The notes under the pieces were generated by a model. That model saw only the letters and a list, made by a program, of their open reading frames with translations, was not told where the DNA came from and made no database searches. Positions 6,184-23,864 of a stretch of 27,651 bases of DNA are shown here, piece by piece. Source of the stretch: Candidatus Zipacnadia bacterium. Its GTDB lineage: Bacteria; Armatimonadota; Zipacnadia; Zipacnadales; Zipacnadaceae. The stretch is taken from positions 1 through 27,651 of the forward strand of contig JALGTJ010000007.1 of the NCBI GenBank assembly GCA_029821415.1, written 5' to 3'. Position 1 is the stretch's first letter. The number at the start of each line of letters is the position of its first letter. Position numbers and translations under genes: made by a program.

Positions 6184-7993
6184 TCACCAATCTGCCAGGG
6201 AAGTCTCATTGTCCTGATAACTTATCGTGTGCAGCAGCATATGCTTGTACTCAAGCTCAGACTTACTTTTGGGCTTGTGTTCAGTCAGGACAGCCTTGAA
6301 TGGATCAGTAGGCTCAGTCACCAGTTCCTTGGCATGCTCAATGCTCTGCCGGAGCCGGGCGCGGGCAAAGTCAGCAGCAAAGGCCGCCAACGATTCGAAG
6401 CTGCTGGCCGGCACTACTTTCACCACTACTCCGGCCCGGAGATTGTTTAGTGGTTGGCGCAGCCGATAGGTACGCTTGCGGGCATAGACTGTCAACTGCA
6501 GTTCGGCGTCATCGCCCGGACCAGTCCACTCCAGAACTGCCGGCTTAGGCCCCGAGGTAACATCTTTACCCTCTACCGGCCCGGCTCGCAGAACCCGTAT
6601 TCCCACATAGCACCCGGCCCTCTGAATTGCGATCGTGCCCATCGCCGGTATTGCAGTCGGCAGTCCGTTCCATTCCTCGCGGCTCACAATCACTCGGTCT
6701 ATCTGCGCACGCGGGCCCAGCACTCCGCGCAGCCAGGCGGTCAGGCGGTTGCCACGCCCAATTAAGTCAAAGTCAACCGTGACCATACCCACATTCTTGA
6801 CCTGCATACTGGTGACATAGCTGGGCCGCGGTTCAGCGAAAAAGTATGCGGTCGGCAGTTCCGGCAATCCGGCCAGAGTAACCAACAGAGGTATACTTGT
6901 CGCGCTGGGCTGGCCAGTCATAGTGCCCAGGCTAAAGCGGTCGTGCATATATGTGTCCGTGCGGACGATATATGCTCCCTCCCGCGCCTCAGTTGATAGT
7001 TGAAACGGCAATTGCCGGCGCACCCCTGCCAGCAGGCCAGCAGGAGGCACGTAGTCGGGAGCAACAAAGAACATAGCAAACTGCGTCACGTGAGAAGGCG
7101 CCGGCCCACCTAAATCAACATAGATAAGGTACGGGCTGTACTCCCCGCCATACAAACAGTCTGCCGGCCTGGCGTATAGTGCAGCTCCAGCCAACGCACC
7201 CGATTCGGGCTGGACACGACCGGCCAGGTCGTAATACATTAGCATCAGCGCATCCTGAAGCTGCTGGCTGTGCATCTGAGCATCAGCGGCCTGCCAGATC
7301 CATTTCAGGGCCGCCAGTCGGTAGCTGTCTGAGGCGGGGCTGTGTCCATCTCCGAGACCCTTGTCAAGCGTCTTGCGTCTTCGCCCACCAACTTGCGACC
7401 TGTTTCAGGCTTTCTGCGATCTGCTGGTCAGCGCCCAGCGCGCGGCCCAGCATCGCCAAGCTGGCTACACGCAGCAAACCGGTGACCTCGTCTTCCGAAG
7501 GAGCCGGCTTATCTCTGACTGCCGCAAGTGCCAGCCCCAGCCCGCTGTACAGTTCCTCTTGCAGCTCCGGCGCGAGCTTCTGGTAAATCTGAGCGAGTAC
7601 CGGGCTGGCAAAATAAGTAGCCTGCAGGCTGGGAGTCTGCCCCTGGCCAGCGAACCAAGGGAACTCTCCTCGCCTGGCCGAGCCCGGCTGAGTATCCTGG
7701 GCAGCCAGAATCGCTCTGAGCACCTGCTGGGCTTGTTCAATGTTGGTGTCGCTCTCACAGGCTGCCAGAACATAACCCGGGCTCTCCGTCGCCACGGTGG
7801 GGCGGCCCACCTGATCTATCACCAAGCCGGTGGCTTCATCAATTTGTGCTTTGCATTCATCAGACGAGGTGAGCCAGCTTACCAGGTTGCCATATCGTTG
7901 GTCGCGTTGGTCGGCCTGCGCAGTGCTCATACCTGCCAGCACACAAACTACCAACACTAAACGCCCAATTGGGCAATCAGAAAGCCAGGCCAC
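6184..7993 (-). pseudogene. Frameshifted gene for a putative secreted protein (~600 aa when repaired), seen as ORFs 7364-7993 and 6184-7275
   Basis: Signal-peptide-like N-terminus (RLVLVVCVLAGMSTAQA-DQ) with AAGGAG RBS. Deleting one copy of the 7-bp tandem repeat at 7368-7381 joins the two ORFs in frame (...WWAKTLDKGLGDGHSPASDSYRLAALKWIWQAADAQMHSQQ...), giving (1810-7)/3 = 601 codons. Confidence 0.8.
7368..7381 (+). repeat. Exact 7-bp tandem duplication GCGTCTT-GCGTCTT at the frameshift point
   Basis: Plus strand ...CAAGCGTCTTGCGTCTTCGCCC...; minus strand GCG-AAGACGC-AAGACGC-TTGAC. Confidence 0.95.
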
Positions 7994-16688: not shown

Positions 16689-16785
16689 ATTTACTCGCTT
16701 TCCCTCCGTCTGTTTGTTGCCCAGCTCCCCACCAGCGTTTTCTCATCCGACCTCTGACAAATCTGATCGATCCGACTCGGAGAAC

Positions 16786-18273: not shown

Positions 18274-18459
18274 CTACCAGCTGGACTTGGTTATCCCAGG
18301 AATGTTACCCGCCAGGGCCTGTTCCCGGAAGCAAATGCGACACAGGCCGAAGCTACGCATATAGCCACGCCGGCGGCCACACAACTGGCAGCGGTTATAG
18401 CCGCGAGTCCTGTACTTAGGCTCTCGCTTCTGCTTGGCAATCCACGATTTTTTCGCCAC
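18274..18459 (-). CDS. rpsZ: 30S ribosomal protein S14, type Z (Zn-binding, 61 aa)
   Basis: MAKKSWIAK...[24 protein letters not shown]...GITKSSW. Confidence 0.98.
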
Positions 18460-19877: not shown

Positions 19878-19937
19878 CGTTACAGCCCTCTTGCGAACTT
19901 GATCGGACTTTCGGCTATTCACATAGTAATGCAGCAG

Positions 19938-22010
19938 TTAACTTCTCTCGCTCTCAGCGACGATGCGTTGCTCAATATCCGGTGGAACAGGTTGATAGTG
20001 AGCGAACTCCATAGTGTAACTGGCACGCCCCTGCGAGAGCGAACGCAGATCCGCCGCATAGGTGCGCATCTCGGCTACTGGAACTAATGCCTTGATCCTC
20101 TGCAGTCCCTTGCCCACAGCATCCATCCCCTGAATCTGACCGCGCCGGCTAGTAATATCACTCATTACATCGCCCATAATGTCCTCAGGCGTAGCCACTT
20201 CAACCGCAGCTACCGGCTCCAGCAGTTTTGACCCGGCTTCTTCCAGAGCCTTGCGCATCGCCAGTTGACCGGCCCTACGAAAAGCCATATCCGACGAGTC
20301 CACCGGGTGCGAACTACCATCATCCAGAGTGACCTGGACGTCAACTACTGGATAGCCAGCCAGTACGCCCGACTCCATTGCATCCTGCACACCCTTTTCA
20401 ACAGCAGGGATGTAGTTGGTGGGCACGGCGCCCCCCTTAATCTCATTGACAAACTTGAAGCCCTCGCCTCGGGGCAGCGGCTCTACCCGGATCCACACAT
20501 CGCCAAACTGCCCCCGGCCTCCGGTCTGTTTCTTATGGCGTCCCTGCACGCGCACCTTTCGAGTTACAGTTTCCCGGTAGGCAATCTGGGGCGGCTTGAG
20601 CGTGACATTGACATCAAACTCATTCTGCAGACGGGTAGTGATGATTTCAACGTGTAATTGTCCCATACCCCGAACAATCAGTTCTCCGGTCTCTCGGTCC
20701 CGCTCGTAGGCGAAACCGACATCTTCGTCAGACAACTGCGCCAATGCACCGGAAAGTTTATCCTGATCGGCACGCGAAGCGGCCTCCAGGGCTACCGCGT
20801 GCATACCACTCGGCAAAGGCGGACAGTCAAATATCACGCTTTCGCGGCCTTGGTAAAGTGTCGTTCCCGTCCGCACCTTTTCCAGCTTGTTGACACAGGC
20901 AATATCACCTGCTGCCACTGTCCCTGCCGAAACCGTTTCACGGCCCTGAACAAAAGCCAGACCACTGAGCTTGGCACTCTCACCGCTCTGTGCGTCGGTG
21001 ATGGGCGCGTCTGCCTGGCCTATCCCGGAGATGGTGCGCAGCAGGCTCAGCCGCCCGACGTATGGATCCAGGATCGTCTTAAATACCACTGCCGCGAATG
21101 GCTGATCCGCTGCCGGAGCTCGGACAATTTCTTCCCCATCTCCCGGCGCATGTCCGTGCCAGGGGCCTCGACTCACCGGCGAAGGCGCCAGTTCAACCAA
21201 TGTCTCGGCCAAACTGGCAACCCCGATTGCCCGGCGGGCATCAGTAGCAAGTACTGGCATAATCAGCCCTCGAGCAACGGCTTTCCGCAGGCCTTCGGCC
21301 AATTCTTCCGCAGTAAGCTCCCCTTCTTCCAGATACCTTATGGTCAACTCATCATCGGTAGTCGCCACCGCATCAACAAGTTGTTCGTAAGCTTGCTCTG
21401 CTGCCTCGCGTAACTCCTCAGGTATATCTCCCCGTTTGACCTCAGTGCCTTGGCCAGTAACCGCTTGCATAGTCAGCAGGTCCACCACGCCCTGGAACTG
21501 CCCTTCGCTGCCGATGGGAAGCTGAATCGGCACGACCTCCGGTCCGGTGAGGCTCTCTGCCAGACTCGCCACCGCACCGTCAAAGCTGGCGCGCTCCTTG
21601 TCTATCTTGTTTACGACGGCAATTACCGGTTGATTGCAATTCCGGGCTGTTTCGAAAACCTTGTAGGTGTGTACCTCCACTCCGGCATTAGCATCAATGA
21701 GTAACACACTACAATCTGCCACCCACAGTGAGGGCACCACCTCGGCAAAGAACTCAGCATAGCCAGGTGTGTCAATAAGATTTATCTTAGTGCCATTGTA
21801 TTCGCAGTAGCAGGCCGCCGGCGAAATGGAGATCTGACGGCTCTTCTCCTCCTCGCCAAAATCACAGGTAGTGGTGCCTTCTTCAACCTGACCCATACGG
21901 CTCTTCATGCCGGTGCTAAACAGCAGCGCCTCGGCCAAGGTGGTCTTACCGCAACCACGGTGGCCAACTATGGCCAGATTGCGAATGTGATCGCTATCGT
22001 ATTGTGGCAC
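19938..22010 (-). CDS. fusA2: Elongation factor G paralogue (EF-G2 / EF-G-like), 690 aa
   Basis: IRNLAIVGHRGCGKTT (G1), RQISI (G2), DTPGYAEF (G3), NKID (G4), KKQTGGRGQFGDV, GGAVPTNYIPAVEKG, HPVDSSDMAF, LLEPV, DLRSLSQGRASYTMEFAHY. Five-domain length with non-canonical G motifs; GGGAGG RBS before GTG. Confidence 0.95.
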   Translation of the reverse strand: MPQYDSDHIRNLAIVGHRGCGKTTLAEALLFSTGMKSRMGQVEEGTTTCDFGEEEKSRQISISPAACYCEYNGTKINLIDTPGYAEFFAEVVPSLWVADCSVLLIDANAGVEVHTYKVFETARNCNQPVIAVVNKIDKERASFDGAVASLAESLTGPEVVPIQLPIGSEGQFQGVVDLLTMQAVTGQGTEVKRGDIPEELREAAEQAYEQLVDAVATTDDELTIRYLEEGELTAEELAEGLRKAVARGLIMPVLATDARRAIGVASLAETLVELAPSPVSRGPWHGHAPGDGEEIVRAPAADQPFAAVVFKTILDPYVGRLSLLRTISGIGQADAPITDAQSGESAKLSGLAFVQGRETVSAGTVAAGDIACVNKLEKVRTGTTLYQGRESVIFDCPPLPSGMHAVALEAASRADQDKLSGALAQLSDEDVGFAYERDRETGELIVRGMGQLHVEIITTRLQNEFDVNVTLKPPQIAYRETVTRKVRVQGRHKKQTGGRGQFGDVWIRVEPLPRGEGFKFVNEIKGGAVPTNYIPAVEKGVQDAMESGVLAGYPVVDVQVTLDDGSSHPVDSSDMAFRRAGQLAMRKALEEAGSKLLEPVAAVEVATPEDIMGDVMSDITSRRGQIQGMDAVGKGLQRIKALVPVAEMRTYAADLRSLSQGRASYTMEFAHYQPVPPDIEQRIVAESERS

Positions 22011-22027
22011 TCAGCTTGCCTCCCGAT

Positions 22028-22222
22028 TCATACATTTGCGCTTGGCTCATCACAGCTATTGTTCTCATCGTGCGCCTTCAGCTTTGTGCTCCGGAGCAGC
22101 ACCTTGCCATACAGAGGATGCCTGGTCCTTCGCTGGATCTCAACCACCACTGTCTTGTCCATCTTGTCACTGACCACCGTTGCCAGGGCCGTCCGCTTCT
22201 CGCCGCTGTGTGTTCTACTCAT
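22028..22222 (-). pseudogene. rpsQ: 30S ribosomal protein S17, C-terminally truncated (about 57 homologous residues plus 7 unrelated)
   Basis: [12 protein letters not shown]...HPLYGK...KAHDENNSC, then DEPSANV*; the conserved GDxVxIxExRPLSKxKxWxL half is absent. Confidence 0.85.
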
Positions 22223-22446
22223 TGATTGATCCCCAACTCCCGCTCGCGCAGAATAGTATTAATCTGAGCGATCGCTTTGCGGTACTTCCTGACCCGCTTC
22301 GGATCGTCAATCTGGCCAGAGGCCAGGCGGAAGCGCAGGTTGAACAGACTCTCCGCAATTTGTCTCTTTCGGTCCTGTAGCTCCTCGCTGCTGGCTCTCC
22401 GCAGTTGGTCAATAAACTGGCGGGTAGTATCAACTGTGTCCGGCAT
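22219..22446 (-). CDS. rpmC: 50S ribosomal protein L29
   Basis: [37 protein letters not shown]; start at MPDTV (22446). Confidence 0.96.
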
Positions 22447-22858
22447 CGTAGTCCCCTCGAGTAACAAACTTACACTTGATCGGCAGTTTGTGGGCAGCTC
22501 GCCGCATCGCCTCGCGAGCGGTCTCCTCGGGTACGCCGCCCATTTCAAACATTATCCGACCAGGCTTGACAACCGCTACATAATAAGCAACCGGTCCCTT
22601 GCCCTTCCCCATTCGTGTTTCGGCCGGCGTCTGAGTAATCGGCTTGTCAGGGAATATCCGAATCCACACCTTCCCTCCCCGGCGAGCCTCGCGGGCCATT
22701 GTCACACGAGCTGCCTCAATCTGCCGGGAATCAATCCAAGCCGGCTCCAGAGCCTGGAGGCCAAACTCGCCAAAATTCACAGTGTTGCCCCGATAAGCTA
22801 ATCCTCGCATCCGCCCTCGGTGCTGCTTAGCATGCTTTAGTCGCTTAGGCATCAACAT
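22430..22858 (-). CDS. rplP: 50S ribosomal protein L16
   Basis: [48 protein letters not shown]. Confidence 0.98.
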
Positions 22859-23864
22859 CTTCAGCTTCCTCCTCGACCGCATCTACCACTATAGCAGGCT
22901 GCGTCTCATCGCTATTGTCAACAGACTCTTCTTCCCCAACAGCTTCTACCGGCTCGGCTGCCTCAACTTCCGTTACTGCCAGCTCCGTTTCTGGTTCGGT
23001 CTCATCGTTAGCACTGTCAGGCTCATCTTCCTCAACAGCCCCCACCGGCTCTGCCGCAGACAACGGGGCCGTCTCAAGCTCTGCTACCTCAGGCTCCGCC
23101 TCTGGCGGAGCAGCCGACAGATCTTCTGCCGCTGCCCCAGCGGTTGGTTCTTCTTCCACCTGCTCCCCATGTTCAATTAGGGCCACCTCCTCTTCCAGCT
23201 CTTCCCAGACATCTCGCTTCTTTTCCTCCTTGGGGGGCAAGATGTCACCCTTATATACCCAGACCTTCACCCCAATGTTACCGTAAGCGGTTCGGGCTTG
23301 AGTGACGCCGAAATCAATGTCCGCCCGCAAGCTCTGCAGTGGAACCGGCCCTTCCGGCCCCATCTTCTCGCGCCGCGCAATTTCTGCCCCGCCTATCCTA
23401 CCAGCAATCTCACAACGTACCCCTCGGGCACCACACTCCAAAGCACGTTCCAGGGCCTGACCCATAGCTCGTCGTGGCGAGACACGCCGCTCGATCTGCC
23501 AGGCAATATTATCAGCCAGCAGTTGCGCACAAGTATCCGGTTGAGCCGTCTCCTCCACATTTACCCGCACCTTTGCCTTAACCATCTTCTGAAGTTGCTG
23601 GCGAAGCCGATCCACATCGCGCCCGCCCCGGCCGATCATAATCCCCGGTCTGGCAGCTTCAATGGTCACCGTTATGCTGTCAGCGGCTCGATCAATAATG
23701 ATATTGGAGATACCGGCATTGCGCTCTCTGTCGCGAATATACTTACGGAGCTTGATATCCTCAATCAGTTGCTGACGGTATTGAGCACCCTCGGCAAACC
23801 AGCGACTACGCGCCTTGCGTACACTGACCAGACGAAAACCGTATGGATGGACTTTTTGACCCAT
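22845..23864 (-). CDS. rpsC: 30S ribosomal protein S3 with ~128-aa acidic C-terminal extension
   Basis: [53 protein letters not shown], then an E/A/D/P/V-rich tail. Confidence 0.98.
22902..23096 (-). repeat. Degenerate tandem duplication (33 and 32 codons) within the S3 acidic tail
   Basis: [33 protein letters not shown] versus [32 protein letters not shown]; in DNA, GTCTCATCG recurs at 22903 and 22999 (period 96 nt) with similar downstream sequence. Confidence 0.8.

Follow-up and report, generated by a model that had tools for sequence, protein, structure and literature searches.

Elongation factor G (EF-G) paralogs of the EFG II subfamily have presented a question of function that has stood since 2007–2011, and the three members studied to date, from Thermus, Mycobacterium, and Bacteroides, conflict with one another, with the latter two described as stress-linked. 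As defined by Margus, Remm and Tenson (2011; PMC3150367), EFG II proteins have a Gly at the first position of the G1 motif, a Leu after GKTT, and a Ser in place of Thr in the G2 motif (RxxSI in the Clostridia and Chloroflexi sub-subgroups), and they keep the G3 motif DxPG and the G4 motif NKxD. In the same study, a conserved genome context was reported for EFG I only, namely the str operon, and not for EFG II. The EF-G2 of Bacteroides thetaiotaomicron (fusA2, BT2167) has been described as enabling GTP-independent translation and is induced transcriptionally by carbon limitation via BT4338 (PMC10294740). In Mycobacterium smegmatis, EF-G2 lacks GTPase activity, and the substitution H88Y nearly abolishes the GTPase activity of EF-G1 (bioRxiv 10.64898/2026.05.25.727771). 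Here, we describe an EFG II gene that is embedded in the spc ribosomal protein operon of a Candidatus Zipacnadia bacterium (assembly GCA_029821415.1), on a contig of 27,651 nt (JALGTJ010000007.1) that was analyzed at its full length and is hereafter called the window. To our knowledge, no Armatimonadota had been sequenced when the EFG II subfamily was defined, and the EF-G-2 of Thermus thermophilus is not located in the spc operon. The B. thetaiotaomicron gene is likewise not operon-linked to ribosomal proteins. The new element is the fixation of such a gene inside the spc operon across a phylum, not the protein family itself.

The gene (fusA2-like; positions 19938–22010 on the minus strand) starts with GTG and encodes 690 amino acids with the full set of EF-G domains (GTP_EFTU, EF-G_D2, EFG_III, EFG_IV, and EFG_C), in agreement with the initial annotation, which had placed a co-directional EF-G-like gene between rpsQ and rplN. 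Its five-domain architecture and domain IV tip loops are those of canonical EF-G (EFG I, fusA), but it lacks the catalytic His and lies in the spc instead of the str operon. A canonical fusA (AHIDAGKTT, RGITI, and DTPGH) was found in an rpsL-rpsG-fusA-tuf cluster on contig C299 of the same metagenome-assembled genome (MAG), as had been anticipated for a gene next to tuf outside the window, and its product is 38% identical to the paralog. Like EFG II genes in general, the paralog is found away from the str operon in a genome that has an EFG I there, and it evolves faster than EFG I (42–45% versus 56–60% identity for the same genome pairs).

The sequence motifs of the paralog are those of EFG II. 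The P-loop GHRGCGKTTL (residues 16–25; 21936–21965, minus strand, as are all features below) has Gly for Ala, Arg-Gly for Ile-Asp, and Leu at position 25 after GKTT. The switch I (G2) motif RQISI (residues 58–62; 21825–21839) has Ser at its fourth position, replacing the Mg-binding Thr, and the switch II (G3) motif DTPGY (residues 80–84; 21759–21773) keeps DTPG and places Tyr84 at the position of the catalytic His. The G4 motif is NKID. In domain IV, the first tip loop reads KKQTGGRGQFG (residues 493–503; 20502–20534) and the second reads HPVDSS (residues 568–573; 20292–20309). All motifs named in the initial annotation are present in the translation, including the exchange of the catalytic His for Tyr next to a retained domain IV tip. 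Their description as deviant calls for correction, given that they match the standard EFG II signature (PMC3150367). Because the solved EFG II members from Thermus and Mycobacterium also carry Tyr at the catalytic position, this residue is a hallmark of EFG II and not a peculiarity of the window gene.

Profile comparisons and phylogeny agree with this assignment. The best NCBIfam model was NF009381 (PRK12740.1-5, an EF-G subfamily), which matched over its full length with 857 bits (cut-off 583). The canonical EF-G equivalog TIGR00484, in which the position of Tyr84 is a His, scored 636.8 bits, below its cut-off of 659.4. In a tree of 76 EF-G sequences, the split of EFG I from EFG II received 100% support in the Shimodaira–Hasegawa-like approximate likelihood ratio test, and all operon-embedded Armatimonadota copies fell on the EFG II side; the EFG II outgroups in this tree were MAG homologs, and named references were compared through Protein Data Bank (PDB) matches only. 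The scores remained below the cut-offs for the EF-G2 equivalog (NF009377; 593 bits, cut-off 890), for the Bacteroides-type EF-G2 (NF058620; 561 bits, cut-off 1000), and for the Tet models. Among solved structures, the closest G domains were those of M. smegmatis EF-G2 (9K0Z, also 9K10; DTPGY), which is the best match, and T. thermophilus EF-G-2 (1WDT, also 2DY1; DAPGY). The Thermus protein shares the subfamily, the P-loop GHxGSGKTTL, and D-x-PGY with the window protein but has HRTTV in switch I. In the M. smegmatis protein, the His of the P-loop and both the Arg and the Ile of switch I have been lost, whereas the window protein keeps His17, Arg58, and Ile60. Over the full length, the best PDB match was canonical Thermus EF-G (570 bits, versus 442.7 for T. 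thermophilus EF-G-2 and 431 for 9K0Z). The window protein is a member of the EFG II subfamily and represents a new sub-lineage of it.

The location of the gene between rpsQ and rplN is not peculiar to this genome but is inherited across much of Armatimonadota. Zipacnadia is a class of this phylum according to NCBI, and MAGs labeled “Candidatus Zipacnadia” and “Armatimonadia” are the nearest named relatives. In six MAGs that come from other studies and whose EF-G paralogs are 87–58% identical to that of the window, the order is L16-L29-S17-EFG-L14-L24-L5. In the GTDB class of the window, 77 of 79 genomes have a match, most of them with both an EFG II-like copy (42–87% identity) and an EFG I-like copy (36–43%), and the order S17-EFG-L14 is present in every locus retrieved from this class. 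This position, hereafter slot A (rpsQ-EFG II-rplN), is also occupied in families f23, f31, f33, and f36, and accounts for 62 loci in the alignment set (62/62 further loci checked, from the class of the window and at least three other Armatimonadota families); synteny in related genomes had been proposed as a check. In another large Armatimonadota clade, the EFG II gene is placed three genes farther downstream and follows rplE directly (slot B, rplE-EFG II-rpsN; 16 loci in the alignment set). Because the same order is inherited across much of the phylum, the arrangement is real and old. EFG II is a vertically inherited, fixed part of the spc operon in Armatimonadota. An order both common and already described in the lineage had been named as a refutation of the initial annotation; it is common there, but no description of an EFG II gene in the spc operon was found in the literature searched, the coverage of which was incomplete. 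Public annotations of cultured members of the phylum must nonetheless show this order.

These patterns suggest a simple history. In a ribosomal protein tree (concatenated L16, L14, L24, and L5), slot B forms a single clade with 97% support, which includes the genomes with EFG II elsewhere and two genomes without EFG II, and the slot A lineages lie outside it. Clades with good support are shared by the EFG II tree and the ribosomal protein tree. A quick EFG tree put EFG II sequences from outside the phylum among the slot A copies; in an approximately unbiased (AU) test, a single Armatimonadota EFG II clade was not rejected (p = 0.325). Outside the phylum, the closest EFG II genes (Acidobacteriota, Bacteroidota, and others; up to 43% identity) are not accompanied by any ribosomal gene within 3 kb. 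The simplest history starts with a single old insertion at slot A, followed by one shift to slot B and, later, by loss or relocation of the gene in some lineages. As the trees are unrooted, the A-to-B direction of this shift is presumed. Two independent insertions, one at each slot, were also considered; given the AU result and the nesting of slot B within the phylum in the ribosomal protein tree, a single insertion followed by one shift is preferred, although not proven.

Several genomes depart from this arrangement. In two f24 genomes, the EFG II gene is located elsewhere, outside the operon, and three genomes (G120, G103, and G111) have canonical EF-G only. The spc genes of G120 follow one another directly, and neither slot A nor slot B holds an insertion. 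In G103, G111, G126, and G232, S17 and L14 are adjacent, and no S14, S8, or L6 follows rplE. It was also observed that the spc cluster in G111 (locus L177) and G232 (L175) breaks directly after rplE, where an unrelated gene, for a methyltransferase or a DUF4011/AAA helicase, follows in place of rpsN-rpsH; the loci of G126 (L176) and G103 (L178) likewise have no S14, S8, or L6 match after rplE. Where slot B clade members have no EFG II gene behind rplE, the break in the spc cluster lies at precisely this point.

Among 80 Armatimonadota operon copies, 74 have Tyr at the catalytic position, five have Phe, one has Gly, and none has His. The G1 Gly, the Leu after GKTT, and the G2 Ser are each present in 74 of these copies. 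Switch I retains the Arg, a gate Ile, Leu, or Met, and the Ser. In canonical EF-G, the P-loop Ile-Asp pair touches the sarcin-ricin loop; the operon copies have other residues instead, for the most part Arg-Gly in slot A. The two tip loops of domain IV vary little or not at all, with the core QTGGRGQ[FY]G of the first loop invariant and H-x-VDSS invariant or nearly so in all groups. In place of the final Asp of G4, seven of 16 slot B copies have Glu and approximately 10 slot A copies have Thr or Ser, in a part of the alignment that was not checked by hand; such a degenerate G4 motif may change guanine specificity in some relatives. Against the two closest relatives, the ratio of nonsynonymous to synonymous substitution rates is 0.10 for EFG II and 0.07–0.12 for L16, L14, L24, and L5; purifying selection acts on the EFG II gene as it does on the neighboring ribosomal genes.

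The two junctions of the gene were examined in sequence data from other runs. The window is the entire contig C41 of a fragmented 1.9-Mb MAG with 326 contigs and 67% completeness, and the sequence-bearing runs are hydrothermal-vent and marine metagenomes. Both junctions, for which confirmation had been called for, are bridged by contigs of two runs, X1 and X2: record 9 of X2 and record 2 of X1 extend from rplN to EFG, and record 14 of X2 extends from EFG to rpsQ and rpmC. A chimeric assembly, or a mobile insertion that recently entered the operon of this one MAG, is accordingly refuted and retains a negligible probability, as the fragmentation and low completeness of the MAG and the local fault beside the gene are outweighed by the bridging contigs, by an identical order across dozens of assemblies made independently (single-contig genomes among them), and by the lack of repeats, transposase, or GC shift.

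The probable assembly fault concerns rpsQ. As read from the contig, this gene (22028–22222; Pfam and NCBIfam S17) encodes only 64 amino acids and matches positions 1–50 of the 72-position S17 profiles, as its reading is correct for approximately 57 residues and then runs out of register. In close relatives, S17 has 87 amino acids, and all relatives have approximately 106 nt more DNA at the probable breakpoint, which lies at 22052–22053 in the window, where approximately 104 nt are absent. Record 14 of X2, a Logan contig, aligns to 21586–22053, continues with 104 extra letters, and then aligns to 22052–22260. The X1 contigs end and begin exactly at the breakpoint, and their loose ends encode the S17 continuation RVGDQVEIIE and the C-terminus VARAE followed by a stop. 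The contigs of runs X3 and X4 stop at 22051 and 22055. The deleted junction (22053/22052) was seen in none of the four runs X1–X4. Because X2 has the extra letters, the X1 ends encode the S17 tail, and no run has the deletion, the truncation is almost certainly a local assembly fault of the MAG, or at most a rare variant, and the “rpsQ remnant” of the initial annotation was not confirmed as a biological feature. The stretch absent from the contig comprises the S17 C-terminus, the stop codon, and the start of the spacer. An S17 pseudogene split by the insertion was considered as well; when the tail was sought in the 60 nt between the EF-G gene and rplN, no more than a faint similarity in one frame was found, and the tail is instead absent from the contig at the breakpoint. 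A search for a second rpsQ in the MAG gave a single S17 match, consistent with an artifact. The comparison thereby exposes an assembly error that would otherwise be read as a truncated gene of an essential type. A gap of 17 nt after rpsQ, as noted initially, is what the contig reads (22011–22027, with the Shine-Dalgarno sequence GGGAGG 9 nt before the EF-G start); the real spacer is probably 54 nt, as in the close relative L004.

The signals around the gene are compatible with transcription as part of the operon. Downstream, a 60-nt spacer (19878–19937) with AGAGGG leads to the ATG of rplN, and the spacer between EFG II and L14 has a median of 68 nt across loci. The ribosome-binding site and the distance to rplN can both be read directly, as had been stated. 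Consensus scans found two promoter-like matches around the paralog (1.8 expected), both inside the gene and none flanking it, and no terminator-like sites at the gene, including the spacer before rplN. No terminal repeats were found flanking the gene, and neither a transposase nor a GC shift was found there, with a GC content of 0.53–0.59 across the gene and its neighbors; these results are in line with the initial annotation. Because of the lack of promoter-like and terminator-like sites, the short spacers, and the flat GC content, co-transcription with the spc genes is plausible.

The best overall explanation, to which we assign a probability of roughly 0.6, is that of an inherited spc-operon EFG II that, beside the str-operon fusA, would act as a low-GTP-cost translocase or a ribosome-bound regulator. 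Transcription on the spc mRNA would mean that EFG II is made in step with ribosomes. The protein would be expected to bind GTP because the P-loop Lys and Thr, the Ser in G2, and NKxD are kept, and, since neither of the domain IV tip loops varies, it would enter the ribosomal A site like EF-G. Its GTPase center appears to be rebuilt, with Tyr in place of the catalytic His and Arg and Gly in place of the P-loop residues that contact the sarcin-ricin loop. Such a center would make GTP hydrolysis slow or absent, and slow or no ribosome-stimulated hydrolysis is probable on this basis. EFG II may then serve as a constitutive low-GTP-cost translocase or as a ribosome-bound regulator that acts alongside EF-G I. 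A growth-coupled role would fit the operon position.

Several points weigh against this explanation. Tyr at the catalytic position is no proof of GTPase loss: T. thermophilus EF-G-2 (DAPGY) was reported with both a ribosome-dependent and an intrinsic GTPase activity as well as translocation activity (PMC3150367). The characterized EFG II members from Bacteroides and Mycobacterium are stress-linked, which is a poor fit with a growth-coupled operon. The proposed co-transcription is based on signals that are absent in simple consensus scans. Furthermore, some Armatimonadota lineages have lost the EFG II gene or moved it outside the operon, so the spc linkage is not obligatory. Since published support is mixed, with the Tyr-bearing Thermus protein reported to be active as a GTPase, the low-GTPase translocase taken alone has an even chance or slightly less. 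A more specific version of the explanation remains tentative and, taken as a whole, is less likely than not. Under this version, a single insertion at rpsQ|rplN close to the phylum's root brought in an EFG II with a rebuilt GTPase center, which would since have been made from the spc mRNA in a fixed proportion to ribosomal proteins, forming a constitutive two-translocase system that would act on growing ribosomes, through GTP-sparing translocation or subunit quality control, and would not be a stress backup.

Among the alternatives, the one that survives best, although we consider it unlikely, is a non-translocating ribosome binder like M. smegmatis EF-G2. In that case, the protein would sit in the factor site as a regulator of stressed or idle ribosomes, and its place in the operon would only secure its supply. 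The M. smegmatis protein belongs to the same subfamily, has the closest G domain among solved structures, and is without GTPase or recycling activity; it is described as stress-specific, and its Tyr98 points away from the gamma-phosphate (bioRxiv 10.64898/2026.05.25.727771). However, the window protein has retained the switch I Arg and Ile that the M. smegmatis protein has lost, and its full-length similarity is highest to a canonical translocase. Moreover, the domain IV tip loops touch the codon-anticodon helix during translocation, and their invariance in the 80 operon copies weighs against a factor that does not translocate.

A dedicated ribosome-recycling factor, which would share labor with EF-G I as Borrelia spdEFG2 or mitochondrial EF-G2 do, is improbable. 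There are two EF-Gs per genome, and a division between translocation and recycling is documented in other lineages. Nevertheless, those recycling factors come from other subfamilies, with the catalytic His and the G motifs intact, and the one EFG II member tested for recycling, that of M. smegmatis, cannot recycle. Slightly less probable still is a ribosomal protection or antibiotic resistance protein of the Tet(M)/Tet(O) type: a common fold ancestry and a partial score for tet_protect (NF012153; 327.7 bits) may be cited for it, but this score is well below the cut-off of 775, every specific Tet model is far below its own cut-off, the domain IV loops are of the EF-G type, and the gene is vertically inherited across the phylum and not mobile.

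The remaining genes of the window provide the context of the paralog. All are on the minus strand, in the order S10-L3-L4-L23-L2-S19-L22-S3-L16-L29-S17-[EF-G paralog]-L14-L24-L5-S14-S8-L6-L18-L15-SecY-Adk-Map-IF1-S13-S11-S4-RpoA-L17, followed by TruA, L13-S9, and lipid genes. Upstream of the paralog, rplP (L16; 22430–22882) matches Pfam Ribosomal_L16 (3e-54), and rpmC (L29; 22219–22446, 75 amino acids) was placed by DNA alignment with relatives and translation. The rpmC frame is that of a 109-amino-acid open reading frame (ORF) at 22219–22548, and its stop overlaps the rpsQ start (ATGA); a 72-amino-acid ORF at 22215–22433 was discarded as L29 because it is in the wrong frame and has no Pfam match. 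Downstream are rplN (L14; 19509–19877; Pfam Ribosomal_L14, 2e-46, full length), rplX (L24; 19164–19508; Pfam), rplE (L5; 18529–19101; Pfam), and rpsN (S14 of the short zinc type; 18274–18459; domain search). The rpsC (S3) ORF (22845–23864, 339 amino acids) shares 38 nt with the rplP ORF, and its Pfam domains stop near residue 203, leaving a C-terminal extension of approximately 130 amino acids. The gene rpsE (S5) is not at its usual place between rplR (L18; 16786–17160) and rplO (L15; 16230–16688), which are separated by 16689–16785, and no L30 gene was seen. A deletion of S5 from the contig was ruled out, since S5 is encoded on contig C236 of the MAG and on other contigs in four relatives (G066, G068, G063, and G037), which indicates a lineage-wide relocation and not a gap in the assembly. 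For two ORFs between rpsI and plsX (6184–7275, 363 amino acids; 7364–7993, 209 amino acids), a Pfam search gave no match at E ≤ 0.001.

The S10-spc-alpha cluster ranks with the best-conserved gene orders of bacteria. Given this conservation, the retention of a non-ribosomal gene within the cluster throughout a phylum argues strongly that selection favors its co-expression with ribosomes. Cultured Armatimonadota such as Chthonomonas and Fimbriimonas may be possible test systems for the role of the protein. Taken together, the placement of the gene in the spc operon points to a role that would be coupled to growth for at least one lineage of EFG II.

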